A stretch of DNA of 64,000 nt. It comes from Lophium mytilinum. Lineage: Eukaryota. The notes under the pieces are model-generated. The model saw only the letters and a list, made by a program, of their open reading frames with translations. It ran no database searches and was not told the DNA's origin. How positions within the stretch are numbered: position 1 is the stretch's first letter; every line of letters starts with the position of its first letter. A program made the position numbers and the translations under genes. The DNA is taken from assembly GCA_010093605.1 (NCBI GenBank), contig MU004181.1:248001-312000 (forward strand). Reading direction: 5' to 3'. Positions 18,166 to 61,281 of the stretch are shown piece after piece.

Positions 18166-20485
18166 TATGGTTTTGGAAGTACTGTTTTCCATACTCGCTT
18201 TTACATCGCTGACCTTTCTACAAGCACCTTGTAATAGGCACTTGAAGCATCTGCGCGATCGATGGGCCGGGTCGCTGGGTCCGGCATTCGATAAGGTTAG
18301 CCTTCTCAGCTCTCAGCTTCTACTGTAGATACCGAAGCTCTCTTCCTTTCTCAACTGCTCCTCCTTCTCCCTACTACTTCCTTCCTCGTGCTCTCTTTTC
18401 TGCGGTGACCCCACTCCACGGCTCGTTACAATCGACAAGACCTCCTCGAGAGCTTGTGGAAGAGACGCCGGCCAAGATCAAAACTCCTCACATCCACGGT
18501 CCTCGTGGCTGTGCAGGATTGGGTTCAAACAGATTCGCGCCGCTTTTCTCATAGCGTAAGCCATATCACGCACTGGCTCCAGTCCGTCCAAAGGGGCAGC
18601 TGGGGTAATGGCTAGTGATCGTCTACTCTGGCGGACCGGGGGAAGTGCGCATCCGAAGTCCAGAGTAGTACGAGGTTTGTTTGGCTCATACATATAATGC
18701 AGACTTTTAGGGTCTCTTTGAATAATGATACTATGCTTTTACCTTTGTCCATTTTGACTCATGCCGTGCCTTCGACGTCCTGTGTGTCCTTTGCTTTGCG
18801 AGAGTTGCGCTTGACCCTCCCAGTTCATGCACACGCAGACCTACAAAGTTGAGAACATCCCTAACGCCCTACCCTGACAATCACTGGATACCTCCTCACG
18901 GATTGCAATCGCGAACGCGCACTCAAAGACCGTCCATCGGTCACGTCTCCTCGCCGAGCTCCGTGATACCGATCTCTACAGTCCGGAAGCGTTTTCATAT
19001 GCCTGTAGCAAGTCCGCTACCTCCAGATCCGCGATACGCTGGCCCGCCACATTTCCGGCACGAGCGCTAACTCTGACGTCGCCTCCTCATCGTTACCACG
19101 ACAGCCCACCCCATTCTCCCACCCCTCAGAGTCCAAGCCCTCGTCCCTACCGGCCCAAGGATGGCCTTTGGTAGCCGCCGCGCGGGACGCCGTTCACCCA
19201 GCCGGCGAGTCCGCCGTCATCCTTCCACCCCCGTCCCAACCGTCTTGGGAATGGCCTAACATAGGCCTTGCCCGCGACCGCGATCATCAAGCCGGTTAGT
19301 GCGCCCGTGTGTTCCGACTCTTCGTTCCCACCGTCCTAGGAACGTTCTAACATAAGGCACGCTCATGACGACGATCATCAAGCCAGCGAGTACACCCCCC
19401 ATCTTCCACCGCAACGCTGCCAGGGCTCTGCAGTACACCCGCGCTGTCTGGCTCTCACCGACTTCGGATGTGCCGTTGAAAGGGTGGGACGCCATGAGTA
19501 TCCGTCTCCTCGCCGTTAGCGTTCTCAGCCTCGGGGAGAATCAACAGCGGGTTGTTGCTTCAAACACGGACCTGGACGATGGGGCTCGCAATCACGTTTG
19601 CGAGGCGTAAGTATCATGCTTGCGAAGATGCAGTGGGTGCCGGGCTTCGCAGACTCTTCTGCACCGCCCTTTCGCATTCCCATAGACTAAAAAGCGTAAC
19701 AAGTGTGTGTGGAATGACAACCTGCCAGAGCATCAGGGAAACCTTGCCGTTAGGCCCCACACTCAGTTTCTCAATCATGGTAGCTGCAGAGCAGCCAGAA
19801 AGGCCCCGTAGCGGTGGCCGTTGTCTCCGGCGATGAGGCTGTGGCTGGGTGAAAGTAATGGAAGAGGGTGGCAAGACGGAGATGTCGGGTACTCCTACTA
19901 GGCCCTCAAGGCTGGCAAAGAACGACGTGGTTACATGATTAGATGGGGAAGCATGAAGAGGTTCTTTGGTTTACAGAATACAGAGCAACTCTGCTGGCTG
20001 GTAAGTTTGACTTCGCGCATAATTGCATCGTGCCACATTCATATGCCTTGTTCTCATGTCAAGGGCCACTTGTCCACATCTTGTAGCTACATAGTATCGC
20101 CAACAACCCGAAGGACACTGAAGCTGGTATTCAAGCTGAGATCTGTGAAGGCACGTTTGCGGGGGCCTCGGACACTTCACTGCTGCGCTTCTCATCACGC
20201 CAGCGCCACTTACAAGCCCACACCCCCAATCTTCACTATCAAGACACGCCCCACAGTGGCAGTGCACTAGGCAGCAGCCTGCTCCCTATCGCCGCTGGAG
20301 TGGCTGCGTTGACGCTAAGGCGCTAGTGTGAGCGGGGCTACAAAAAGACTTCGCTGGCCCTTCGCAACCAACCTTCCTACAACATCACGACACAACTGGG
20401 CTCGGTACCCCCGGGGTATCTACTGCCTTTTTGCAGTTGGTTATTGTTTGTTTTGTTTCTTGTGAGGCTCGGGAGAGCCCACAAG

Positions 20486-20750
20486 GTACGTACACCCATG
20501 ATTTGTTGGACGCAAACACTGACGAGCTTTCAGAGACTGCTGGTGGCGCCAGCGCCCTAGACGACACTGATGTCGTCGGCGTCAACTTCAGCAACTACTC
20601 ACGAGACTCGCTCACGCGGAAGCTTGCCCGGACCGATGACCCCCCAGCCGCCAAGGCCGAACGCAAGCCAGCACAAGTCAAGCTTCTCCCACCCAGGTCT
20701 GCGCGTCACAGTATTTTTTGAAGCGTGGAATGGGATCTGCTGGCGGTACG
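20486..20750 (+). pseudogene. pad-1: RBM39/Pad-1 linker exon fragment
   Basis: After intron 20486-20533: AGGASALDDTDVVGVNFSNYSRDSLTRKLARTDDP, the conserved RBM39 linker motif; TGA at 20719-20721. Confidence 0.88.
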
Positions 20751-24137: not shown

Positions 24138-27100
24138 CTAAAGAGCCAGCCGCACCAAGATGGTGGAACAAAAGTGGTGGGGTGGTTTCAACCCTCCAGA
24201 TACTCTCGGAAATTCTGGTTTTTTGGTGGGACAAATGTTAGGAAAAGCGAGCATGCCCGCCATGTTGGGCTTTCGCAGGATGGCCTAATGGATTAGGTAG
24301 TAATTCCTTCTCCTCTACGAATCCCGCCGCGATCGTGGCCCAATCCCTGAATGACGCGCTCAAGAACGCAACTGGTCTGACGCGAATTGGTCTTCATCCA
24401 AGTGTTGCTCCAGCCCGTCCGCCACGCGTGCGAGATGACAATGGGAGAGGTTGACACTAGTGAAGTACAGGACATATCCATCCTCCCTGAAGCTGCTGAT
24501 GCCATGAAATAGGGTTGCTATTACGCGGGCTCCTATAGTGAATAGGGGACCAAATGAAGCCGGAGGCGACCAAGTCGGAGCGTTTCTGTGGGTGAAACGA
24601 ACCTTCAATGGAAGGTCCTCATTTCTAGGTACTGCCATGAATCGCGTTCTTAACTCCTGTTCTCCTTCCCTACTCGTTGTGCAAGTTGGTCGCGATGGGG
24701 TGATGTGAGGGCAGTACATTTGCTTCTTCGGGTCACTCACCATTTTCCCAACGTGGTAAGAGCTTTTTAGCATATGTGGAGTAGTCCTTGGAAGACGTTG
24801 ATACGGTTGCTCGTGCCTATCAGGCAAGCATGCTGAGCCATACTGCTCTCTCCATGAATGAGCTTAAAAACCTCGAAGGCCGTCGGCATTCACCACCATA
24901 CCCAGAAGCTCAAGTAGGAAGGTAGATGACTCCATACGTTGTCGAGGCCGTATTTTCAACCACTGGCAAGTGCGGAAGTTTGGTGAGCCTTAGGAGCTTG
25001 TTGGCTATGCCACGCCCCTCGACCAGCCAACCTCTCGTTCTAAGACATATAGCTAAAAGATGGCTTCCAAGCAACCAGAGTTGCTCTCCGTCCCCAGAAA
25101 GACTACTGGCACACTCGTACTGTCTTCTATTCTTAATCGCCACGTTCCCATTCTGCGTACTCTTATCAATAGCCTGAATTGGACGTCCGAAGTCCGCGGC
25201 AAAAGCCTGTAAAAGATGCAGCTTCGGCGGGAGAGATAGCCTGCATCCGTAAGCTAGGCCTTTAGTCTTAACCACCACCCCCCTCATCTACTGCTGCCTA
25301 GTACGCAATGAAGTTATTCCTATCGATGACACTTAGTCCGAGTCGGTACATGGTACACCTAGTTGTATGCTGGAAAGGATGGGATCAAAGGAGGCACCAT
25401 CTACCTATCTTGGTATTAGTAATTCGACTTGCTCCCGTTTCATAGCGATCAGCCTCACCAGCGTCTTCCGGCATTAGGAAGCTCAGGAGCCTTGCCGTCG
25501 GTAGAGTCCTATGTCCCGTATATGGTCACGTGGATATGGCACCACCCTGGCTCCACGTTCTCCCGCTGAATACCAAACTCGACAGTGCTACAGGTAGCAG
25601 CTGATGCCTTCGCCAGATGATAGTTCGCTCTCCATTGAGTTGACCTTTACATTGTATTTACAGTCTCAAATCTTATCGGGCGACCCTTGGCTGTTGCAAG
25701 AAGCGCCCAAAGCATTTGGCTTGGGGCTGTAGGGGAACCGTCTCATCATCTATGAACCCGCAGATTTAGTTCTCGAATGTACGACTCCCGTCGGCACGTC
25801 GTCTCGCATTCAACCATCGATCGGTTGATTACCCAGCCTACTTTAAGATTAGCTACTGTTCTGGATGCGTGTAATACGGACATGAAGTTGGAAACATGTC
25901 TGGAACCATCTGCAGAGCAGGAAAAGAGGCTGAAGCTGAGAGGAGGAAGATCAGCTCCGCCGATTCTTACATGATAGTGCTCAGCCCCTCCTGCGCACCC
26001 AGGATCGTCATGCGCAAGGTCGGTGCTCCTAGGTTGGAGACGTTCGGTGGGTGAAGCGTCGTAGTGTTCTCCTGTATGCCAAGCCCAGGGGGCGATGCCA
26101 ATTGGAACTCGTTTTCCATGTTGTCCGCGACATCCGCGACATCCGCGTTATTAAAGTTAGGAAGCGGTGCTAGCATGTCTCTCAGTAGTGGGTGACGTGG
26201 GGTACCGGAGGTGTCTTTAGCACTCTGAACACGGTTGGTGTGGGCATCGTTCGTGGGCTCATTCGTTATGTTGGAATCCTAGGACTCGAGATTCGGAGCC
26301 ACCATTTGCTTGATGGCCACGCCTTGAGCGCAGGAGTCTGTAGCTGGTACGGTCTGCGACAAGCTTGTTTCGCCTTTCATACGGTGTATCGTGAGCGCGT
26401 CCGTAAGCGCTTCCTGGCTCGGCATGACCCCCGATAGCTGGTTGAGGAGTAAGTTTGGGCCTTGGGGCGTTGGATTGGCAAGGAAGCGTTTATCGATATT
26501 CAGGGACCACGAACCTATGGGACATACGAGTCCTATTGAGGAGGCTATTTCCTTCTCCATCAATGGTTGGGCGCAGAAAGTTCGCTAGCGTCCGAGTAAC
26601 TATACTCACCACCCACGAATTCCACAGCTGCGGTCGGAGATGCACGGCATCCAAGCTACAGTATTGGATATGCAGGACCATATGAGCTCCCGTGATATAA
26701 TAGAAAATGAGAGAAGCAAGGCTCTGAGAGGCTTCTGGAGCCATCATCGAGAAAAGCGAGCATTGATCCATATGGACAGTGGGATGCTGGACATAGGACA
26801 CGGGGGTCAAAGGGTCGACTGTGGATGGATATACTAACAGCGTGGATGGATATACTGACAGCGTGAGAAGCCATGCTATCAACGTTGGTTGGGAGAAGAA
26901 ACTGATACTTTTCTTGTTGTTTCCACAATTTGGTGCAAGGAATATGTGGAGCTTGAACTCCTGAGCGAGGGCTTGATTCTGTCTTGCAACGCGCGGTAGC
27001 GTAGTTGCCGCATAGCACTAAATATTCAGACAAATAGAAGATAAAATGACATGCGACGGGGGCTTCACATTTTGAAACGCATGATTGAAACGAACTCCTT

Positions 27101-27250
27101 ACGTAAGCGTCCTGATGGGTGAATGGTGGAGACCGCGCGCTGCCGTAGAGCTGTGCGCTTGCCACGCCTCCTTCTTGGCCTAGCTCGCCATCCCCACCTA
27201 CCACGAACATCAACCACGACAACCGTACGAACCAGTCGTGCAAGCCCAGC

Positions 27251-28444
27251 ATGGGAGACCGCCGTACTGCCGCGCACGGCTCGGGTACTGCCGCTGCTGT
27301 CGGTGTGATGCTCAATTGTCGGCTGACGCTACCTCCCCCACAGGTTGGTCCCGCGCCTATTGTACTCTCAAGGTGCTCAATTACTAAACTGCGCCGCAGA
27401 ATTTCTCGGTGATTCTTGCAGCTCAACAGGCGCAATCCCAATCTCAGGCAGAGCTGGAGGGCTCTCAGCCTTCAGACCAGTTGCAGAAGGACTACTTCGG
27501 TCCGCCCCACCACCATCATGTCGGGTTTAGGTACTTTGGCCCGGAAGAAGAGAAGGTATGTTTTCTGCCCTTTATAGCGCGCCGCATCAAGACACTTACA
27601 CTCTGGATAGAGCGGTGTTGGTTTCTTCTCCCTGCCACGAGAATTACGTGATCAGATATACGAAGAGTCTGCGACAAACGGTGGCTTGGCAAAGGTGTTA
27701 TGGACGGATCCCAGAAAGCGCAAGGTCATCGTCGAGAACACTACGGATCCTGCTCTGACGGCTACTCTGAGCGCGCTGCAAGCGGTCCACCCGCAGGTCG
27801 CAGGGGAGGCCCCGGAGAGGGCTTGGACTTATACGACCCCACTCGTGGACGACTCCCGCCAATTCCTCGCCTTCAAGAAAAAATTAGACACAGAGACCGT
27901 CTTAGGAGAGCCCAAACTATCCAACCGCGTCAAGTCAGTGGCCTTTCGCCGCCTTGCTGGACCATACGCCAACAGAGCCATGGAGAAGTTGTTGGGAATG
28001 AAGAAGCTGAAAAAGGTGTTCATCGTCCCAAAGAAGGTACCACGCGCAATGAATGCTCGCCCGGATGCGTATCGTCGCACCCAAACCGCCATGATAAACC
28101 AGCTGTTCAGTTCGCCCGCCATTGTCCGATTCTGTCAGGACCTGTTGGAAAAGCAAAAGGCCCTGTCTTTTGACGCAAACCTGGACAAAGCGTTTGAGAA
28201 GCACGAGAAGACTCGGGCTAGGTGTAGGGCGTTACCGATGGGTGGACGTCTTGGGGATCAGGTCAGAATGCAACAAGCAGAAGAGCTCAATGAGCTTTTC
28301 GCTCAGGAGCGCAATCAAGCCATGCGAAGCCTTTACAGCGAGCAGATCGAAGCCGACACTGAAGAACTATCTTCGCTGAAAGCGAGAACCCGAGCGGTTC
28401 GTAAGAGACTAGCAAGTCGGAGAAAGCACCATGATGCCCTCTGA
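27251..28444 (+). CDS. F-box/2EXR-like family member A, about 360 aa, exons 27251-27343, 27400-27555 and 27611-28444
   Basis: Two phase-0 introns; the last exon starts SGVGFFSLPRELRDQIYEE and continues into ORF 27686..28444. The first exon is less certain. Confidence 0.85.
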
Positions 28445-30151
28445 TCCCCTTCCCTTTCATGTAAGTAGCTACGAAGAGCTTGAGGCGGTGTTCTGTGATG
28501 TAGGAGTAGTTGCCACAGAGGCCACTCCGCACATAAAAGGCGAGAAGAAGGCTTGACATTCAAATATAATCTCTTCCTTCACAAGAAGTAATCAATGCCA
28601 GTATGCTCAACTCGGTGGAGGCAGAGTATATAAATAACTATTTTCATCCAGGTCATCCTATTATGCACATCATCAACTGTCTTGTTCACCCTTATGCCAC
28701 ACATGCCGCCATTCCACCGCGCCCTTCTATATTTCCCAGCCCAAGAGCGAATTCATATCGTTCTACAATGAAGATGATCAAGAGTCACGATTACTGGTTC
28801 ATTTCTGCACGCAAGACCGGGCTTCTAGAACCTCAAACAAGAAGAGATGTTTACGAAATGCAAAACGCGCAAACCTGCGGTGCACGGTAACCCATCTTGT
28901 GGAGTCTATCTTAGCCCTTCACCAATGAGCTTGGGAGTCTCCTTGTAGAATGGGATTCTCAGCTGTCGACTCCGGATTGCAGATCCTGCGAATGAGACTC
29001 CGAAATGTACAAGCTGATGTTTCCACCTCTCTCGCATTCGCAAGCTCCGAAAAGCTCGAGATTGGGAGGCGTAAGCCGGCGGTGCAGGAACACTCATGCT
29101 GGGCGTGCTGTTCTTGACAAATATGGCTGAACGCGGAAGGTTCCTCGGCGTCTGACCGAATATGGTCACCAACTACCAATTTCATGGTTGGCGTTTCAAT
29201 CTCGACGGCATGAGTGTGTTGCGGCGCCTGGTCCTTGCACGTACTAGGCACATCAGCATCGACAAGCCGAGCAAGCCTTAAGAAAGATCACGAATAAACA
29301 CATTGTATAAATCTTTCTTGGGAATGTAGTATAGGAAACAAATGTTGGAAACCAATCAGGGGAGGCTAGTGACTGCCCGAATTGTCGTCCTATGTGGCAT
29401 CTTTCTGAACAGATGGTTGTTTGATCACTTGTAACTCTTGTGTCGCCCGCATTCTATGGCCGTGCTTTTACGTAAAGTTCCTTAATTGTTTCGAAGAATG
29501 CGAAACGGGTAAGGTGAACTTGGTGAATAAATTGAAGCCCTGAATCGCAGTGACTGGTTCGTAGAATAGGATATGTGATTGCAAGATCAGTGTCCGCATC
29601 CTTCGTTACCGCCGTCCGCATGATTCAGCCCACTGTAAATATTTAGTGGAAACCTATCAGTCTAAACAGCCTAGAATAGAGAGGTTTTACATAAGCTACA
29701 ATCGCCGACAAGACACATGACCTTGGAACAAACCGTACCTTGGCGCGAGAAATGCGAGTGGCTGGGATTTGAACCACAAGTCCTGGAATTTTCATTGTCA
29801 GCGTAGGGCTTCTCTAGTCTATCAGCACATCACTGTGGCCCCCTAGCGGCTACTCCATCTACATCACACTATCGACATTTCATCCATTCCGCTATCGGTC
29901 AGCAACTTATCCGAGCAGTTTGGCGCTCTACCAAGCCGAGCTCCGCCCCACGCAGCTCAACGTTGGTAACGCAGACGCTGAAAACGGGATCATAACAGCT
30001 CGTTAGACTAATATCGGTTCCAGAATTGCGGCAGCCTCCCACGAATAACGTCTCATTACCCCGGGCACGACAACCTCCCGTACTCCTACCACTACCTCCA
30101 ACCCTACGGCGACTACCTACAACCCTACAACGATCTACGCAGGCTCCCGTG

Positions 30152-30828
30152 ATGTCACCCTTAGGACGCCAATCTAATAACGGGGATGTGGAAGAAGCTG
30201 TGCTTAGACAAGAGCTCGTCGACCGGCTTGCTGTCTACGGGGATGCGCCAGCCCCACAGCAGGTAAGCGTGCGTCACCATAGAATAACCATTGCTTAGGC
30301 TTATGCATTGAATAGGAAGGCCTCGCCGTCCGTCTTAGAGGGCACAACCCCATTCAAGTTCTTCCGGCAATTGTCCCCGCTTGGATGAATAATAACCTAT
30401 ACTCCTACATGGAATGCCAGACGCACTATATCAAGGCTGTCATCGCCGCTGAAAACGTTCTCGATGTATTCTTGGACCTCATGGCGGAACATGCTGCAAT
30501 CGGGGGACGCCTAAGTATCTTCTTCGCCTCCAATTGGGAAAATGCCGCCCAGGACTTCGAAGTGATACGGTTTCAATATCAAGCAGTGCTACCCAGCGGC
30601 AGGCTGGATGCTGATACAGTCCGTCAAATCTGCCTCCTTCTCGAGAGATACTGGGACTCCTTGCTGCGTGCAAGCCTTATCAAGCACATCAATCGCAAAG
30701 TGGAGGCGAAGATGTCCCACTACCTTGACCTCCTTGCCCGCCACCCAGATCGCAAAGATGAAATAGAAAGTATTGTGCAAGAGATTATTGAGCTACAGGT
30801 CTTGAGGGTCGACCACGTCCAGAAGTAG
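30152..30828 (+). CDS. Hypothetical, probably helical protein, 207 aa, exons 30152-30262 and 30316-30828
   Basis: Phase-0 intron GTAAGC..AATAG joins MSPLGRQSNN..APQQ to EGLAVRLRG.. and ORF 30385..30828. Confidence 0.75.
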
Positions 30829-30949
30829 GTACGTCTCATACTGGCAGTGCATAATCTTGATGCGTCGTACTGACATGGTGCTAATAGGAACGATGGTGCT
30901 CTGGCAGCTACATAAGGACCATGGTTTCTTGCCGGCTCTACATTCATTG

Positions 30950-31594
30950 CCTTCCAAGTTCAGACCGGCTGCTCCTAGGACGTCTTTGGCTGGGCGGAGG
31001 GAGTTGTGAAGGACGTCAGGCCAGACCAACTCTTGTTAGGCATGTAGCAACTAATACAAAATTGACGAGTACATACCATATATGCGACTACAATGTCTTC
31101 TACTCTGCTCCATCGACCCCACTGTATGGAGTGCCTGGTGCAAGACGCGATTGTCCCCCAGAAGCCCCCATTTCCTAGAGCACGAAGTCCTTCTCCTTGC
31201 TATTACCCAGTGGAAGATCGTCAGGAAGCTGTTCAAATCGCTAAAGGTGGTAAGTCTTGCGAGGCATCTCAAGGAAGCACGGGAGAAAAACACGGCTCGC
31301 TGTATCTAGCTGTATCTTCAATCGAACTGGCGCAGCATCTTCAATGAGTTTGAGCGTGATCGACCGAAGTATAAACCACTCAGACCAGAAGGAAGGCTCG
31401 ACGAGAGGACTATAAGCTACCAAACTGGTAGACCAAAGACATTCTTTGAGTACATTCGGTATGGCGCGGTTAGAAAGCTGTACAAAAAGAATATGATAAA
31501 GGTGCAAGAGGTGATGATCAAGCTACAGGGTTAGTTGAACAATTCGCGTCGTAGATACCATGAACTACGAGAGAACGGCGGCGCCGATGTCTAA
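30950..31594 (+). pseudogene. Pseudogene of the A-E family
   Basis: AIVPQKPPFPRARSPSPCYY, QWKIVRKLFKSLKVVSLARHLKEAREK and SNWRSIFNEFERDRPKYKPLRPEGRLDERTISYQTGRPKTFFE align with member D (AIVPSKVPQNSNPEPDAFY..ADWDDAFEAHENNRPKCRKLAASGGRLTAEVRLRQTEELRVYFD); contains frameshifts and TAG stops. Confidence 0.8.
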
Positions 31595-32169
31595 TTGCTC
31601 GCCCTTGCTTTTTCCTACGATAGAGCGAGATGAGCGTTCCGATTCCGAAAGACCTGCCTAGTAGGCGAAGAAGATGTGACGGAAACCTTCCCTGTGTCAA
31701 TCATTTCTTTAGGATTCGGTAGGGTGAGTAGGATATTCCAAATAGGGTTTTGGCAGACCTCTTTAGAGGAGTAGTGTTGTGGATAGGCAGTATAATCCTC
31801 TTCTACTTTCATAAGCAATGATGTTGCTATCTGCGCCTGTGACTCGTAGCGTACTGCTGTGTCAACATTTAGCATATCCATGTACCAAGACCTATGGCCT
31901 ATTACTCTACACAGCTCCATCCGTTCATTTCTCGGGTGAATTATAGTAATAGTATGTCTATTAGCCTCCGCGTTTTATCTACTAGATAATTGCCTCGGTC
32001 ACGGGATGACCGAGCTCTTGGCCCAAGTGATTTCTAGCCACAGCGCCGTGCAAATCCGATCCCCGCCACCTCCATCTCCAAGTTCGGCGAACCTCGACTC
32101 TGTCAATACCAGTGAACAACAGCTTCAACCCAGGAAGCGCGGCCCCCGTTATTCCACTCCCTCATCACA

Positions 32170-33392
32170 ATGAACGTGCCAGCAGCGACTCAATCGACCC
32201 CGACAAATGTTGGAGCGCTACACTCCACCCCACTAGTTAGTCAAGGCAAAACGGGTCAACTATTACCTCTCAACTAAGATGCGTAGCAGAATCATGATGT
32301 AGCTTCTGCGACCTCTTCTGCCGCTCCATTAGTTCGCCTGCACCCTCCTCGATGCCCCATCTACCAGCCCCAAGCTCACACTCAGCAGGCTCCTACACTG
32401 CTCGCCGCCGCTCTGACTGCTGCTGTTAGAGGCAACCACACCAGAGTAGGCGATCCTTCCGACTAATTCAAAGGAAGCGTTCATACTGAAAATGTTCATA
32501 GAACGCCGCCCCATTCCCGTTCCTTGCGCTGCCCCGCGAGTTGGCTGATATGGCCTACGAATTTGTGTTCACGAACAATGGCCGAACCTGCGCGGTCTGG
32601 ACAACCGGCACAAACAAGCGGGAGGTGTGCCTCATCAATCTCAAGGATCGAGCTGTTACCCAGAGCTTTCATGCTCTGGCCTTGTCGAACATGAAGGTTT
32701 ACCTCGAAGCTTCCGAACGCTACTGGGCGAAAACCACTCCGGAGTTTGATAACGCTGAGCAATTCAACGCGCTCTGGGACCAGCTCAACGAAGAGCGTAC
32801 CGACGGCAAACCCAAAGCCTACCACCTCTTCAAGTCTATCGCGTTCAAAAATCTCAAGGGGCGCCACTCTATCAAGGCGTTCAAGCGCATCCTCCAGATG
32901 CCAAACCTCCGCCGCGTGGTGATCGTACCGCGTAAGGTATCCAAGAAGCTGAACGCAGCTCCAAATGCCTACTACAACTGGCAGCGCGCTGGATTCGACA
33001 GCTTTCTCTCTTCTCCGAAGACTCTGGACTTCTTAGTGAAGCTGAAGCAGAAGCGCATGGACGACGGCCGCCAGGCCCAGGTGATTGGCGGCCCTAACTG
33101 GTACAATCAAGCTTTTGACTACGAAGCGGGCCGACGGAAATGTCGGGCGCTGGGTCGGCCGGGAAGACTTCACTCGAACGCGATTCACCATGAAGTTGCG
33201 CAGTTGGAAGATTACTGTGACAATGAGCTTGCGAATAGGATCGATGCCCACGTAGCCAGTCTGATCCAGGCCAAGACGACCCGCATTCAAGAACTTGAAG
33301 CTGGTATTCGTACTCGGCGTGTAGAACTTCGGATCCGCAAACTTGAACATGAGCGCAATCGTCTCCGCGTCCTGAGGAACTCTAATGCCTAG
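32170..33392 (+). CDS. F-box/2EXR-like family member B, 371 aa, exons 32170-32235, 32287-32445 and 32502-33392
   Basis: Two phase-0 introns; the last exon starts NAAPFPFLALPRELADMAYEFVF and continues into ORF 32541..33392. Confidence 0.87.
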
Positions 33393-35417
33393 CGGAACGA
33401 ATGAATACGTCGGTCACGGTGGCAAGCTCCCTCTTCCAACACTTCGTCATTATCTTAATTAACGGCAAAGTTAGCACCATGAGTGTAGCCACCACGATGG
33501 GCGATTCGGAAGGGAAGGCAGGTTTGAAATCGGGCGAAAATGAGGTGAGATAGGAAGGGCGGTGGGGTGCCTCAGGGCTATACATGCTTGTCACTAGCAC
33601 AGCCCGTAATACATAGACTTGATATTCAAGCTATGATAAAGCAATTGGGTAATCATATCATTATTCTCCTCAACTAATCATGCGTATTTCAGCGAGACAC
33701 GCCATTCTCAGCGCTGTCCGTCAGCCAACGGAGCTGAGTAAGCCATACTTACAAACATTTCCACCTTCATATTCGTTGTATGGTTGCTACGATGCATCTC
33801 CTACTAACTCCATCTCAACCATAAAGCCTGAGTGAACCCCAAGGACACCACTCGCCGTCAGAACTCCCAAGGCTATTCCGACGTCTTTAGTTAATGGGTG
33901 CATCACTGCAACATCGACAAGACCATGCGCATTCATACCCTATCCTTCCCTCACAGAACAAAATAAGCCTTCTTTGACCGACATACAAAAGCTACGTTTC
34001 TTCAAACACGTTAGCAAAACGTTTGAAAGCTGACCAAAACCTGGATCATTCGACTTTCCTGTTTTGGTTGACGTATGAAACCTTGTAGGATCTGAAATCT
34101 TTTGATCTGGTTGCCTCCAGCGTCTTGCATCTATGCCATTTTCGAAGTGTCTAAGAGTAGCACAATAGCCTCATTACAAACTTGAAGGTATTTATTGCGG
34201 CATGGTCACGCCGTTCGAAGAGACCAGGCTCGTACATCCAGCCTAGCGCTTTGGGGTCCTCACTATATCTGTTCTTCTGCCCTATCAATCACGCGCACTA
34301 GTCTCCGCTGCGAGTGCAGATGCGCGACTGCCATGTCGGCCTTCTGCTAGAATTGCACGAAGCCGGCCAACTGAAACGATCCTCGCAACAAGCTGGCAAG
34401 CGACGCGCACGCGAGAGGGTATATACCTCTTGTCCCGAGACCCATGCGGGCCGCCCAGTGGAGACTGCAGGGGTATGGTCCGTGTCGCCCAGGAAGCCAC
34501 TGGCGCGGTTGGAATGAAGTTTGCATTGGAACTCCTCTTATCGATCCTACGATCGTGAACATGCTAGCATTGCTTGAAATCACGCCAGATAGTGGCGGGC
34601 GACCCACAAGCGTTGCGCTCGCAAGCTACCGAGAAGGGTTGTGTTTAAAAGATGGGAGGGGCATGCAGTAACTTGGGGCGCTGAGTCCGTTCGCGCACGG
34701 ATTGCTGACATGGAGACAACGGTGGGTGCACCTTGACTGAATTCGAGGAAGAAGTAGAAGCTCCGAACTCCTAATGTTTGAAGAGATTGCGAGCTTCCCG
34801 TCCATTTTTGCGTTTTTGATTGGGCTGGGAGTTCTTTCTGGATCGTAGACAGTCTATAAGGAAAAAACTATGGCAATTGAGGTATTTGCGGCGACGTAAA
34901 TAGCGGGTCTTTCTGGTTCCTTTGGCGAGGAAATAACTCTTCCGAGCACGTTCTGGATCATTCTTCCCCCTTCGCGCTTGTGGTGAAGATGATCTGGCTC
35001 CGTTTTGATATGTTGCCCAGGTAGTGACCGCGATATGGGTGTTCTAGTATAATCGTAGTTAGCATGTTTATGATACCATTGGTGTTAACAGGAAAACAAG
35101 TTGTACTAACAGGAAAACAAGTTGTAGTCTCGTGATGGGTGTCTTGAGCTCTGAAAGATCTGAAGCACATTCAGCAGCAATGAGACTCTGTAGAAAAAAA
35201 TTGGTTTGATTCGTAATCGCCAGCGAGCAAGGGTGGCTCGGAAAGCTCCCGACGCGAAGCGCTCGGTTAGCTAGCCTGGCTTTGGACTTTGGCGAGAGGT
35301 TTGCTCTAAGTACTCACAACGACACCGCCGTCTCCTGCGTGTACACCTTCAACAACAATATCTACGACAGCAGGTCTACAGATTGCTTCGCGTTCCACTG
35401 CAGCTGCTCAAGGCGCG

Positions 35418-36473
35418 ATGATCACTTTCGGCGCCGCGGGAAACACCGCTCGCTCACAGGTACGCCACTCCCGAATGATGAAACTCTCCTCTTTTAGCCT
35501 GGATTGCTAATCGAGCTACTAGCCCTTTCGCATGCAAGATTTGCCGGCGGAGATTCGACAGAAAGTCATCGCCCAGATGTGCTGGGGCAAGATTCTGGAG
35601 TTCTCTTGGAATGCCCCTCCTGCGCCAAACACCGCCCTCGGGCCCGCGCTCGTTGTCAGATGCCAGAGAGATCCGTTGCTCGTACCAACCCTCAAGGCTC
35701 TAATGCTTGTAAACAAGTTGATGGCCAACGAAGTGCCGCGTAATGCGTGGCCAAACATGATCCTGTTCTTCGAGGCTCCTCGACAGCTTACCGCCCTGGG
35801 CAGGGTTCTTCACTTTGCTGGTAGCTCCGACTTGAACGAGGACGAGCAGCCTATTCGCCCGCACACGTACATCCGGTCTGTCGCATTCAAAGAGCTTCCT
35901 GAAATTCCAGAACCTGGTGCGTACGATTGGTTCAGGGACATGCCCGGCATCAAGGGCATCACGGACATCATCGTCACCCCTCGCATGTGGATCCCCAAGC
36001 AGCATCGGAGAAAGCTGGAGGCGTTCCGCTTGACTCAAGCGGATCATATACAGGCTCTGCTCAACAACGTGTGGAATCTCCGGCTCCTCGTGGATATCGA
36101 GATTGCTGAGAAAAAGAGGGGGGACGTCGTTGGGAAAACTCGCTTCATTTTCGATCCCAACTTCGACGACATGTGGCTCAACTTCGAGCAGACCCGTCAT
36201 CTCCGCCCAAAGCTTGAAAGCAAGAGATACACTGTCGAAGAAGTCACCGCCCAAGCCGAGGCTCTTGCGTCCGATTTCGTCATCCGACGTGATCAAGGCC
36301 GTCTTTCCTACGCCAACAAGGTGATGCCTATAATCAAGAAGACCATCGAAGACAAGAAGCGGCATATGGAGGAGCTGCAGAAGTGGACCGATCGGCAGGA
36401 AGACAGGCTACAGATCATGGGCGTATTGTACACAGACCCCACAACCGGCGCCGCATCCAGCAGCAGTGGCTAA
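35418..36473 (+). CDS. F-box/2EXR-like family member C, 330 aa, exons 35418-35459 and 35523-36473
   Basis: Phase-0 intron GTACGC..GCTAAT..TAG, then PFRMQDLPAEIRQKVIAQM and the 313-aa ORF. Confidence 0.88.
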
Positions 36474-36856
36474 AGAGCAGGAGGTAGGAGGAAGGCTAGT
36501 GTAGTTCTTACGATCTGAATACTATCCAAACCTCTTGCTGAATAGGCCGTGTTGACCTTTCATGAAGCAGCCTTTGCCGCCTTCCAACTTCTTATGTCCT
36601 GATTCACTGCTCTCCAATCTTGCTAGAAAGCACAACATTACCCACCGTGAAAGCGTTAGGTTAACTAGTGCACAAAGTGAAACCACTACATTTCGAAGAG
36701 GTAAGGCCTATATTTTCTACTCTAGGTTTCCTCCACTAACCGATCCGAAAACTCCTGTATCGCCCACACCACCACCACACACTTTGATTCAGTCACACCA
36801 AGGCCTATCCGCAGCACACTTGTCCCCCAAAACACCCTCTATCCCCACGTCACAAA

Positions 36857-37871
36857 ATGGCGTCTGCAGCTGCCGCCCAGCCGGCTGAAAATGCGCAGTC
36901 TTCCAATCAAACTCAAGAGGTTTGTACCCCTTTCTAATGCCGACTCCCGCTTGCCCGTATGCTAACATTACAAACAGGCGCCGAAACCTTTGACGTTCCG
37001 TGGCCTCCCCGGAGAAATGCGCAACATGGTCTATATCAGCCTCGTGGAAGGAGCCGTGATCAAGTACTCCTATAATCTCCGTCGCGGTCCCTTCCGGTTG
37101 ATCAGCGAAATCCCCAAGAACCCAAAACTTCGAGCCACGCTCGCTACCCTTGCTGAAGTGGACGAGGACCTTGGAAACGAGGCTATGGGACTATTCACGG
37201 AGCTGTCACGCCCAGAGTTCGAGAACATTCATCAGATGTCGTTGATTTACGACGCCGAAGGACCCAGAACTGAGTTGGAAACGTACCAGTGGAAGGACAA
37301 TGTTCGGGTCGTCGGGTTCTCCAAGCTGGAGCCGGGCCGCCACGCTGGCTTCGGGAAGCTCGTGGATATGGTGAAGAATATGCCACTCCTCCGCGAGGTA
37401 GCCATCGTGCCTTCGAAGGTCCCACAGAACAGCAACCCGGAGCCAGACGCGTTCTACAACCAACAGCGCTGGTTTATCCGGCGCATTCTGGCCAAGAAGG
37501 ACAATGTGATGCTCTTCCGGGAAATGAAAAAGGCTCGGCATGAAGGGGAAGAGCGGGCGAGGGTGACCTTCCGCGCCGATTGGGACGACGCCTTCGAAGC
37601 GCACGAGAATAATCGTCCAAAATGCCGTAAACTTGCTGCTAGCGGAGGTAGACTGACTGCCGAAGTTCGTTTGAGGCAGACGGAGGAGCTTCGGGTCTAC
37701 TTCGACGAGCAACTTGATCAGGCTTTGGATGGACTCTTCAGGGAGAACGTTGAGCGGGACACGCGGCATGTGGTGAAACTCAATGCAGATCTGGCGAAGC
37801 TTCAGGCAGATATTGCTGTCGCCGAAAAGGAACGTATCGATGAAGAGACCCTTTGGGCCTCCAACGCCTAG
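36857..37871 (+). CDS. F-box/2EXR-like family member D, 318 aa, exons 36857-36919 and 36978-37871
   Basis: CAAAATGG start, phase-0 intron GTTTGT..GCTAAC..CAG, then APKPLTFRGLPGEMRNMVYISL. Confidence 0.9.
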
Positions 37872-38432
37872 CCAGAGACCAAGATCAACAAGTCGTGCTG
37901 CGCCACATGCTCACGAGAGCGGCTTCATCCCCGGTCCTGTGGGCGTGTGTCTTTTACTGTTTTCGCGATTGCGTGGGCTGATGCAACAATTGAGACATTC
38001 CGTAGATTTGTAGGAATTATCGAACGTCCCTGGAAGTCTTTCTATTACATGCTAGGGTTACTCCTTTTCAGTAATTGGTATTTGATCTCAACTAAGCGGC
38101 CAGTATGGGCAGGTAGACTGTGAACGAGGTTCTCTTTCAATGAATGGGAAAGATTATCGGAATGCTAGATAGATCGTAGTAGAGTTCTAGTCTTTCTTCC
38201 AAAATGCAACTGATTCGCGCCATTGGAACATGAAGATGGAAGCATGGATATCAAACTCCTAGATTTCCACTATTGCCCTCTCGATGCACTATGAGGAGGG
38301 CTCCAGACACTAAATCGGAAAGAGGGTATTATAGCTCAGGTCTGATTTGATTGACCCGTGCCATCCCAACGTTGCGGTTATTTTGGGCATTTGATTGGGA
38401 TCGAAGGAAACGATTCCGCGGCCTGGGGTGGC

Positions 38433-46081: not shown

Positions 46082-49000
46082 ATAATAAAAATAGATTGTG
46101 CATTGATTCCCATGGAGAAAGGCCGTCTTGTCGGTGAATTAAGCCCGGATTATTGTGGGCACACAATCTCCTGTTCTACAAGCCGGGATACCGCAGAGGT
46201 CTCTGCTACAAGAACGCTCTCGTGGACCTTCGGGATGTCAGTGAGCACTCGGTCGGAAGGCGGAGAACAAAAAACATGGAACTCCTCCCACGACGACGCT
46301 TATTGGCCATTGAGCATCGATGACGTGAATGCAGCCTCGAAGGTCGTTGCCTGGAAGCGCCACAAAGTGCTAGGACACTAGCGTCGACGAATTTTCTAGA
46401 GGGTATATCTTTCACGTCTGCGTCTCAGAGGAACAGCAGAGGGGAAGTTGCGACCTCATCGCTGCAACACGAACCGGAAGCCGGAGAAATGGTGGCTTGG
46501 GTGATCAAAAAGGAATGACAGTGGGATTCTATGGTGCTGGGGTCGAGCGCGTGGCTTTTGCAAAACTGTTCGACCTGAAAACCCATGATTGGGGAGTAGA
46601 GGGACACGAAGTTTTGATGCTGATAGCCAACGAGTACTCCTGATGCTGCAGAACTACGCGTAGGGCATGATGGGGCTATCCGCCATAGCCACACTCTGGT
46701 CTGTGGGCCACAGCGAGGTACAAGGTATCATCGCTTTTAAGTATCGGGCTTCATCATCACCAATGTCTAGCCTCTTCATGGAATCTGGACCTGAGCTATT
46801 CTGCCCACCGGCCATCAATCCTCTCAGTGCCAACCCCGCCCAATCATGAATACGTCCTTCATGATCTGTTGATAGCCACCCACCCAACAGCTCTGACATC
46901 CGAATCAATGGAGAGGAAGAGACCTTTTATATTGCGTTACAGGAGAAACTTCTATGACTAAGTGTTGGCACTAGCTAGGGGTTCCAGAATACGCCTGCGG
47001 AAAGCGCTTGTAGACACGGCACCGGCAGTCTCAAGTTCCGTTCCAAAGGGCTGGCGCCGTGGAGGAAAAGCCGTCACCTTACACAAGTCCCGTGTTCTAG
47101 ACACCCTTCACCATTCGGCGCCCTTTTCAGCACAGCACAGATGGAGCGAGGCACCGAGAGGTCCAATAGGGACTTCCGGCGGTGATATTGAGCTGGGGGT
47201 TTAAGGCTGTGGAGGTCGCTTCAGGGGCCTTTCTTGATGTCCAATTTGTAACGGAAGACAATCAAGTTCAGCTTCTCCTTCGCATATCATGCTCCAGCGT
47301 GTAAAGCGGGGCCGCAGTGTGAATTGCGATGAAGATCTCGCGCTTTTGATCGTGGCCAAGATACCGTTTGCCACCCCTCCAGTTGGCCGCCTGACCTGAG
47401 AGTCGGCATGAACATCACCTCCGCGCGTTGGTCGCACCGACTAAGCAGGCTTCTCGACCCTCCATCCATACACGCCGACGCAGACTCGGATTGCCGCCGT
47501 CACCTCGATTTCTCTCTGTCGGACATCATCGCACGCCCACATTGCAGCGACGCGCGCGTCCACGGAGCGCCCGCGGCGAGGGTGGGGCGTCGCGCGACCG
47601 GTCGCTCAGAGCGTCAGACTTGTCCACCATTTCCACGTTGGTGAGCATCCTCAGCAGTCACCCGTAATTCTGTACAGTTTTCAATTATATGAGGAAGGCC
47701 TAGATTCCTGGCCATAGACGACCTACCCGCCTCCCACCGGTACCAATCCTCCCAAAAACCATTCCTCTCACGGCCACGTACCACAGCAAGACAGAAGGTG
47801 CATCACATAGATCTTCGAAGACCTCGTGCTCTGAGCAGCAATACCGACGATCAGCACTCACGCGACATCGATAACCAGCTCTGCAATTTCGGCGAATTCG
47901 GCTCAAAAGCTTTCGACATCGACGACCAGAAACCGATGCATGCAGCCGTGGTGAGCAAATCCCAGTGGCTGCTGCGGCCCTCGTCCTACGAGCGGTCAAT
48001 CTTTGTTCCTAGAAGTGCGTCGCTGAAACGCTATGATGGGTGCTCCATATCTGTAGGCGTCGGAAAGCCGCGCATTCAGTACTAGGTCGCAAGTTCGGGC
48101 ATCCCGGCTATACCACTGCACCTGTTTCATTCTTGATTTATCGACACCGCTTTCGAAAGGAGCCCAGCTAACACATCCTCAGTCCTCCAAGATGTATCGA
48201 GCTTTTCATCGCATTTCACGTTTATGACCTCCATCTTCGGACCCAGAACAGCAGGAGAGTGTGGCCCAGCCGAGAACGCAGAAGTCACACCCCGAGACAT
48301 CTTTCCGCGCATATACAGAGGGTCAAGATGATCAAGCGATAGCAAACGAGCAGAAGATGAGGAAGCAACGGGTCTGATCGATGCCTTGCTATGGGGAGAA
48401 CGTGCTCCAAAGGCACTAGGGCTTGCAGCTCGAGTATTACAACCGCGCCCGTGCTGGCAGAGCCATCGTCTCTTGCAGCGAGCTCAGCACCCCACATACG
48501 CCATTGTAATTGTGCTCCATTCATTCAGCCTTATGTTCTCGACAAAGAAAAAGGAATGCGCGCAACATTTATCTCCATCGGACCCTTTTCCGAGTCCGCT
48601 GTCTTTTATTATAGCATGCCCAGCTTCAATAAGGAACGTCACGGTACTCCATACCAGGCGCAGACCGGAGAATGTGAATGTCCTTTCGATGACTAAACGG
48701 TTAGAGTGGGCCTACGATAAGCGGGTTCCAAGCTGATATCTCTTCGAAGCCAGGTCAACCACGAACACGAATTCTCACGATTCGACACGGAATAGTCCAT
48801 TCTACTGGGGCTGGTAAGCAACCGCCAAACTAGAAGGACGCTAACTAGTGGCTAGTAAAGTACATACGAATCGAGCTAAATCAAGCGACATGCTCACATG
48901 TACGGTGGAACCGTGAAAAAATGCTTCGTCGCCCACCATACGCATAACGGGTTTCAAGACCCGATACCCAACAGCAAGCACCAACCATTTCGTTTTTCTT

Positions 49001-60158: not shown

Positions 60159-61281
60159 ATGGCTACCCACGATACCCGTTACAACCAAGTACTAGGAGCC
60201 ATTGGTACCGCACCGACGTATCCACTTCTCCAACCGGTGCCCGCGGACTCGATCCTGCACAAGAACATCCAAAACTTCATCGATCTCACGTCGCCTCAAT
60301 ATCCGCCTCAGCCTGCGCATGGTGCCACATATATTGCCTCGCAGCCTGTCGCTCATGCCGAAGACGTGGTTCGTGTTCCAACGGCTACCGCGGCGACGAG
60401 TCCGCTGCTAATTCTTGGAATAGGCCACAGTCCCTCGGTCTCTACTCCAACTGCCAGCGAAATTCATGACGCAAGTATTTGAAGACGCCGTTGGTCTGGA
60501 GGGGCCACTGCAACGTAGAGCGCTGGGCTACTCCTATCTCGTAGCAGATCCTCCCGCCGACAACTTCCTGCCGACGAGATTCCGGGTCGAAGATGTGCTG
60601 AATCCGGATTCGATCACGGACTACCTGGCTCTAAGCTTGAGCTGCCAGACACTCTACGCTGAGGTCGGCAAAGCTTTTTGGAAGCGCAAATTCCCGGCGG
60701 GGGACTGGACGAGAGTCTCCGACACACTGCTGCCACTTGCCCGCTCCAAAACCGACTCCAACTTCCTGCATTTGATTCCCGCCATCGTGATCACAAGCGG
60801 CAGTAAGCAGAACGTCCGCGAGAGTTGCGACATCATCCTCGTCATGCAAGGGCTGAAGACCTTGACATTTGCCGGCCTCGGCGAAATCGATCCAACTGTT
60901 CCAGTGCCACCCACGTTCGTAGCGCGCAACACGACCTATATTGATCAGCTACTTTGTCAAGAGTCAATGTGGTTCTGGGACCTCTTAGAGCAGAAGGGTG
61001 TCAAAGTCAAGTTCGATGCTGACTACGAAGCGGCGTACGAGAAGCATGAGGCTGGGTGGCGTAGATTACACCTCCTTGGGAAGGTTCACACGCCTTGCCG
61101 GACCGCTACTCAGAGGGAGGCCGACTCCACCTCCCTAAGCCAGTATTTCGACACTGAGTTGGTTCGCCGCCGTCAAATCTTCACAGATGTCGTACATCGA
61201 GCTCAGGCGGCCAGAGAAGCTTCCCACGCGCAACAGGCGCAGAAGCCTCAACAACAACGACCTCGACGACACACCACGTAA
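60159..61281 (+). CDS. F-box/2EXR-like family member E (most divergent), 355 aa, exons 60159-60368 and 60424-61281
   Basis: CAAAATGG start; phase-0 intron GTTCGT..GCTAAT..TAG, then ATVPRSLLQLPAKFMTQVF; KVKFDADYEAAYEKHEAGWRR matches the family F.A.(W/L/Y)..A(F/Y)E.HE..R motif. Confidence 0.82.

Follow-up and report, generated by a model that had tools for sequence, protein, structure and literature searches.

The analysed window is a 64,000-nt stretch of contig MU004181.1 (assembly GCA_010093605.1, positions 248,001 to 312,000 of the forward strand) from the wood-inhabiting fungus Lophium mytilinum. The source was identified by exact protein look-up, with KAF2502039 corresponding to copy A and KAF2502040 to copy B, a fragment and copy C of the gene family described here. 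On the + strand of the window, the paralogues A, C, D and E are full length and two further copies, B and the fragment, are partial; a divergent seventh member, copy F, lies outside this array, 22.5 kb downstream (Table 1). The full-length proteins comprise approximately 280-320 residues.

Within the window, tblastn linked A, C and E to one another (E-values of 1e-15 to 1e-40) and tied B to C with an E-value of 1e-8; copy D had no significant BLAST match against the whole window. Since D was not significant in this comparison, its membership was tested independently with a profile from which it was excluded, which combined three Mytilinidion resinicola proteins with A, C and E and was searched against the six-frame translation of all 64 kb. 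D was recovered over profile positions 7-280, the two pieces of the fragment over positions 163-191 and 199-267, and copy F as a match at 60424-61278, and beyond the copies in Table 1 the search returned only one weak antisense match (E 0.039). All seven copies thus belong to one family.

Table 1. Family members in the window (positions counted from its first nucleotide; ORF, open reading frame).
Feature	Span	Strand	Extent	Exons	Stop-to-stop ORF	Profile E-value
Copy A	27251-28444	+	full length	27251-27343, 27394-27555, 27611 onward (deposited)	27611-28444 (277 aa)	3.2e-118 (A itself in profile)
Copy B	30152-30828	+	internally shortened, frame open	30152-30262, 30316-30828 (predicted)	30316-30828 (170 aa)	9.8e-22
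Fragment	31055-31534	+	partial copy			3.9e-7 (31310-31531) and 0.06 (31055-31306), two collinear pieces
Copy C	32170-33392	+	full length	three: 32170-32235, 32290-32445, 32502-33392 (deposited)	32502-33392 (296 aa)	
Copy D	35532-36473	+	full length	single, from ATG 35532 (predicted)	35523-36473 (316 aa)	6.4e-22 (profile built without D)
Copy E	36857-37871	+	full length	two: 36857-36919, 36978-37871 (predicted)	36966-37871 (301 aa)	
Copy F	60424-61281	+	full length, divergent	5' exon not defined	60424-61281	1.9e-6

In a MAFFT protein alignment, identity to A is 33% for C, 29% for E, 25% for D and 22% for B, and D is the most divergent of the four full-length array copies. The initial annotation had described four intact co-oriented genes and one pseudogene. 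The four genes lie on the + strand as described, and the single pseudogene gives way to two partial copies, one of which, B, retains an open frame. The four motifs it listed as shared can all be read in A and E, only approximately in C and in degraded form in D. The LPxE(I/L) start motif and the hydrophobic positions after it recur in A, C, D, E, F and a distant subfamily described below; B has LRQE at this place. DNA similarity between copies had been called not obvious, and indeed no direct or inverted repeat of 20 nt or more joins them, suggesting that the duplications are old.

Copies A, C, D, E and F provide five open frames of 277-316 codons in a genome of 52% GC. The sense frames of A-F have a GC content of 60-69% at third codon positions (GC3; 69% in D) and 32-44% at second positions (GC2), with the coding-type pattern GC1>GC2<GC3; the short fragment exon has a lower GC3, 54%.

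Gene models and deposited annotation

The deposited model of copy A (KAF2502039, P0008) starts at ATG 27251, and the main ORF, beginning at 27611, contains the entire conserved domain. The model drops the last 14 codons of this ORF by splicing and appends an unrelated 78-residue exon, 28654-28887, as its predicted 3' end. The second deposited protein, KAF2502040 (P0007), merges B, the fragment and C into a single product of 810 residues. Its first 190 residues are copy B, whose predicted first exon of 37 codons encodes LRQELVDRLAVY, a degraded-looking head motif, and whose second exon, following a GTAAGC...AG intron, covers no more of the family than its C-terminal half (profile positions 142-295). 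The fragment is read by the same model as internal exons. It contains an in-frame stop (31307-31309) situated inside a possible 60-nt GTAAGT...TAG intron (31250-31309), and for this reason it cannot with certainty be called dead. The C-terminal part of the fused model supplies the exons of copy C given in Table 1.

The predicted first exon of copy E spans 21 codons and is followed by a putative 58-nt intron (GTTTGT...CAG) with a CTAAC branch site. Neither the D ORF from ATG to stop nor E from the internal ATG 37017 had an exact match in a collection of 15 billion proteins, the spliced E product not being among the sequences looked up exactly, and neither protein search (90% and 50% clusters) returned a self-match for D or E. 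The two genes therefore appear to be unannotated, or modelled differently, in public sets. Antisense genes over C, D and E were considered as an alternative and rejected: the antisense ORFs of 178-235 residues are without family matches, and conservation follows the sense frame. In the single RNA run listed under the species label, next to none of the window's sequence words occurred, and no contig aligned to 27000-38200.

A comparable model was noted in M. resinicola, where the deposited orthologue of C (KAF2817887, P0009) extends into the head of the copy that follows. Missing from the same protein are approximately 18 residues of the IVPxKV...AY motif, a gap that a mis-called intron probably explains.

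The deposited annotation thus fuses or misses members of the family. Proteome-derived counts of the superfamily to which we assign it, 2EXR/DUF7730, are consequently unreliable.

The counterpart in Mytilinidion resinicola

Taxonomic range, which the initial annotation had proposed to check, was assessed with HMMER, by searching 1.84 billion representative proteins with the family profile. This search returned 14 matches at E<=1e-3, five of them at E<=1e-10. Half of the 14 span most of the profile, and all seven of these come from L. mytilinum or M. resinicola, so that, within this set, full-length relatives appear only in these two species; the other seven are restricted to profile positions 2-113. 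A word-indexed search with E recovered one relative among 2869 candidates, the M. resinicola protein KAF2817885 (54% identity). PMC12910237 places Cenococcum, Glonium and Lepidopterella in the same order, and none of the 11 matches looked up by name comes from these three genera. Two metagenome scans, one with an E and KAF2817885 alignment and one with a C, KAF2817887 and A alignment, found no relative, all of their 301 and 616 pattern matches having failed tblastn. Only annotated or predicted proteins enter into this range, and as annotation missed members in this window, it may be underestimated.

In M. resinicola, the genes for KAF2817885, KAF2817886 and KAF2817887 follow one another directly and are ordered like E, D and C (and A). 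KAF2817885 is the orthologue of E and KAF2817887 that of C (51-52% identity), and the C-terminal extension of KAF2817887 is similar to the head of A (48% over 31 residues). With both ends of the trio matched in this way, KAF2817886 occupies the position of D.

An IQ-TREE phylogeny of 12 rows, from five of which non-homologous extensions had been trimmed beforehand, supports the pairs E/KAF2817885 (100/100), KAF2502014/KAF2817872 (99/98) and C/KAF2817887 (85/76). Copies A, B, D, F and KAF2817886 sit on long branches that the tree leaves unresolved. The supported cross-species pairs indicate that the duplications are older than the divergence of the two genera and that at least two array copies have been kept one-to-one.

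These comparisons point to an array that is old, conserved in order and fast-diverging, and not to recent birth-and-death. Birth-and-death, proposed in the initial annotation, thus fits the main array poorly, in view of the shared order and the E/KAF2817885 and C/KAF2817887 pairs; only B and the fragment look like later, lineage-specific partial duplicates. One-to-one conservation, which under purifying selection had been named beforehand as a finding against such a family, applies to at least these two pairs. The orthologues of the two genera, which belong to one family, are 45-54% identical, a divergence that appears high.

A distant subfamily, comprising KAF2502014 of L. mytilinum and KAF2817871 and KAF2817872 of M. 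resinicola, shows an identical domain order and carries long N-terminal extensions of 250-290 residues with acidic and basic low complexity. KAF2502014 lies on the same contig, approximately 25 gene numbers upstream of A, and the M. resinicola pair lies approximately 14 gene numbers from the trio. As the subfamily is found nearby in both species, the family island is larger than the window. Copy F groups loosely with these three proteins.

Head, core and tail of the proteins

The N-terminal motif had been likened to F-box/2EXR-type domains, and this resemblance is borne out by the profile comparisons. Every one of the seven N-terminal-only relatives carries 2EXR (PF20150), DUF7730 (PF24864) or F-box-like_2 (PF13013) at E<=1.1e-4; five of them reach a Pfam gathering score, and in the other two 2EXR falls just under its cut-off of 24.8 bits. 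Aligned by hhalign, the family and these relatives match at 98.2% probability (E 5e-14) over columns 2-115 and nowhere beyond, although the relatives had been retrieved with the family's own profile and only their Pfam labels are independent. F-box-like_2 co-matches the 2EXR region in five of the seven and exceeds its cut-off in one (P0015, 24.1 versus 21.6 bits); it also matches the distant paralogue KAF2502014 at E 0.047 and no window protein at E<=1. A 2EXR match of the M. resinicola orthologue of C stays below threshold at 18.2 bits (E 0.0057). On sequence grounds, we place the head, the N-terminal ~115 residues, in the fungal 2EXR/DUF7730/F-box-like_2 group.

The ESM Atlas neighbours of E are fungal DUF7730/2EXR clusters whose proteins are of similar length, some of them named "F-box domain-containing protein". 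Of the 30 nearest clusters, 16 form a DUF7730 set and 11 a set that shares no Pfam family, and the others fall into sets of 2 and 1; the score is 0.96. When residues 116-245 were searched alone, a DUF7730 cluster came third (0.87), which we treat only as a lead. The DUF7730 comparison set comprised eight proteins (two protein searches gave one and five), none of which extends past model position 140, so that the comparison covers the model up to that position.

The array family shares with 2EXR and DUF7730 an LPxEIRxxIY-type start of the head, and the 235 positions of the DUF7730 model are comparable to its globular part of about 230 residues. It differs from them in that HMMER similarity ends near residue 115, and in that, within the 1.84 billion proteins, the motif NWDxAFxxHExxRxxCRxLxxxGRL and the long C-terminal helix occur only in the two Mytilinidiaceae genomes.

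AlphaFold2 modelled the whole of E with a mean predicted local distance difference test score (pLDDT) of 85.9 and a predicted template modelling score (pTM) of 0.77; residues 1-240 alone gave the same fold (pLDDT 83.1, pTM 0.77). The predicted head consists of a helix (16-27), a beta-hairpin (31-48) and helices over 55-80, and the predicted body of four beta/alpha units whose strands cover 82-85, 115-118, 144-147 and 199-202. A single helix, residues 232-300, forms the predicted tail as a block of pLDDT 91-97. The tail had been described as basic and as helical or coiled-coil. Its helical character is reproduced in the model of E, and a basic composition is limited to A and C, with isoelectric points (pI) of 9.5 in A, 9.2 in C, 5.8 in D and 4.6 in E. 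For residues 219-301, a VIA structure search with the whole model returned coiled-coil rows only. A homodimer prediction with two copies of E scored 0.01, which is evidence in neither direction.

The strongest constraint lies at the junction of body and tail. Between E and KAF2817885, identity reaches 77-87% over residues 196-255, a stretch that takes in the NWDxAFxxHExxRxxCRxLxxxGRL motif and the first part of the long helix; other globular windows are mostly 40-60% identical (67% in the window leading into this core), and the distal helix only 17-23%. The motif is, in these alignments, the best conserved of the family. Residue E214 of the E ORF is an invariant Glu. A C-terminal L-x-x-(S/F)-N-A is common to C (33375-33389), E (37854-37868), KAF2817885 and KAF2817887, and it is kept although the preceding helix is so poorly conserved between the E orthologues; it may be a short C-terminal signal. 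We considered the SNA end as a peroxisomal targeting signal 1 and rejected it, as it falls outside the S/A/C-K/R/H-L/M rule.

No well-characterised domain matched the C-terminal region in Pfam, by Foldseek or in profiles of Protein Data Bank (PDB) sequences, in agreement with its earlier description as unnamed, and body and tail had no Pfam or PDB sequence match. On the model, this region is probably what is left, in divergent and repeat-like form, of a globular domain of the 2EXR/DUF7730 type, followed by the family-specific motif and a long helix. We regard the family identity and the three-part architecture as highly probable.

Possible roles and surroundings of the array

Our favoured reading, to which we assign a probability of roughly 40%, is that of a Lophium/Mytilinidion subfamily of the 2EXR/DUF7730 ("F-box-like") superfamily with an adaptor-like role. 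The fast-diverging subfamily arose by old tandem duplications, its gene order being kept in both genera. In the model, the F-box-like head is formed by the LPxE(L/I)RxxIY helix, an inserted beta-hairpin and two helices. The body contains three to four degenerate beta/alpha units resembling leucine-rich repeats (LRR), with IRSVAFxxL and MPNLRxVxIVP strands, and ends in the conserved core motif, after which a single helix of 65-80 residues follows. Under the favoured reading, such proteins would be non-enzymatic intracellular adaptors, most likely acting as substrate receptors or scaffolds. In this role Skp1 or a cullin ligase would be the docking site of the head, the repeat surface together with the conserved motif would bind partners, and oligomerisation or partner binding would fall to the long helix. 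The Skp1-cullin-F-box (SCF) type of mechanism, taken by itself, is plausible, if less likely than not.

The closest structural parallel is offered by receptors of the FBXL type (KDM2B/FBXL10, TIR1, COI1, Dia2), whose order of parts is alike, an N-terminal LPxE helix preceding beta/alpha repeats. They are a recurring theme of the VIA search, at Z-scores of 3.6-5.5 that all lie below the tool's noise guide. For the globular part, the list is headed by the KDM2B F-box/LRR chain 8hcu_A (Z 5.5, 133 aligned residues, root-mean-square deviation 7.7), and the best 50 rows hold 13 LRR proteins, including four F-box/LRR proteins: KDM2B, TIR1 (Z 4.2), Dia2 (3.8) and COI1 (3.6). Some of these chain identities are presumptive. 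The F-box/LRR alignments begin at the F-box, and in our reading of the alignment MPNLRxVxIVP resembles an LRR strand motif. In contrast to FBXL proteins, the array family has no Pfam F-box or LRR match, and its model shows a hairpin in the head, just three to four irregular repeats and a terminal helix of 70 residues. The F-box/LRR likeness is thus weakly supported by the modelled structure, as a consistent theme and not a proof.

Several results weigh against the favoured reading. No window protein reaches any Pfam gathering score or matches DUF7730. Copy A scores only 15.3 bits (E 0.046) against the 2EXR cut-off given above, copies B, C, D and E have no 2EXR match at E<=1, and none of A-E matches the F-box families PF00646, PF12937 or PF13013 at E<=1. 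The hhalign result carries the dependence already noted. On the structural side, the AlphaFold2 alignment held 12 sequences only, and the predicted hairpin takes the place of the canonical second F-box helix. With both the whole model and residues 1-240, Foldseek found nothing in the PDB at E<=1e-3 (best E 0.064). Every VIA match falls under Z 8, the tool's noise guide, and could reflect just a common arrangement. A profile search of PDB sequences gave a best E of 0.032, with no relevant family and no F-box/LRR protein at E<=10. In the literature searched, no 2EXR or DUF7730 protein with a tested function was found. PMC9621593 was the sole paper treating 2EXR as a protein family, and none dealt with DUF7730 or PF24864; in its passage on 2EXR, this paper (DPCfam) says no more than that the two ExR motifs might be functionally important.

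It is also possible that the proteins are non-SCF scaffolds or nuclear regulators, with a head that is F-box-like in sequence only and does not bind Skp1, and with a basic globular domain and long helix that bind nucleic acid, chromatin or other proteins. The globular parts have a pI of 9.5-10.1, which would suit such a role, although basic pI by itself is weak evidence and no DNA- or RNA-binding family was matched in Pfam or in PDB sequence profiles. The hairpin insertion in the head and the missing F-box match are also consistent with it. The best VIA row, KDM2B, acts in a non-degradative Polycomb scaffold complex. One 2EXR/DUF7730 match, P0022, has a Zn2Cys6 transcription-factor domain joined to it in the annotation; this fusion, however, could stem from faulty gene modelling, as with the two fused models in the array.

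A role in conflict or non-self recognition, in which fast-evolving paralogues under positive selection would act in allorecognition, drive/antidote systems or antiviral defence, we consider unlikely, because synteny and orthology are conserved. The very narrow range, the partial duplicates B and the fragment, and surroundings poor in recognisable domains (2 of 164 other ORFs with a Pfam match at the thresholds used) would fit it. So may the 45-54% identity of orthologues between two genera of one family. Conserved gene order with at least three cross-species orthologue pairs argues in the other direction, as do the 77-87% conservation of the core motif between E orthologues and the finding that no HET, NACHT, toxin or nuclease domain was detected by Pfam in the window proteins or the profile-search relatives.

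We find it rather improbable that the family is a young, lineage-specific invention built around an F-box-like head. In that case the motif and helix would constitute a new partner-binding or effector module, the C-terminal L-x-x-(S/F)-N-A would act as a short functional signal, and the paralogues would diversify under a conflict that may involve, for example, allorecognition, drive/antidote or the control of mobile or viral elements.

Decaying, non-functional ORFs left as relics of an old expansion are very improbable: D, and E from ATG 37017, have no exact public match, B and the fragment are partial and the motifs of D are degraded, but the five long open frames with their coding-type GC pattern, the orthologues kept in a second genus and the strongly conserved core all speak against decay.

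As a Lophium/Mytilinidion subfamily of 2EXR/DUF7730 proteins, the array is a lineage-restricted version of a known, uncharacterised superfamily and overturns nothing known. In filamentous ascomycetes, the 2EXR/DUF7730 "F-box-like" proteins number among the large gene expansions that are still unexplained. The locus offers a compact case, with seven paralogues in the window, synteny with a second genus, and a sharply conserved core motif beside fast-evolving flanks. Being compact and well delimited, the array is a good starting point for finding out whether such proteins are true Skp1-dependent adaptors.

The array lies in an orphan-rich stretch, and the window is strikingly domain-poor. The 164 ORFs outside the array that were scanned against Pfam were stop-to-stop frames of at least 90 residues. 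One of the two matches is credible, an RBM39 linker at 20332-20718 (+) with an E-value of 2.5e-10; the other, a short DUF1502 repeat match at 48130-48483 (-), looks like chance. Neither Rfam families nor tRNAs were detected in the window. Tandem Repeats Finder reported 10 short arrays, none of which connects family copies and one of which lies within the gene array (35086-35126, two 21-nt units, in the spacer between C and D). The spacers hold two short 21-nt tandem duplications, at 26821-26865, upstream of A, and at 35075-35126, in the C-D spacer upstream of D.

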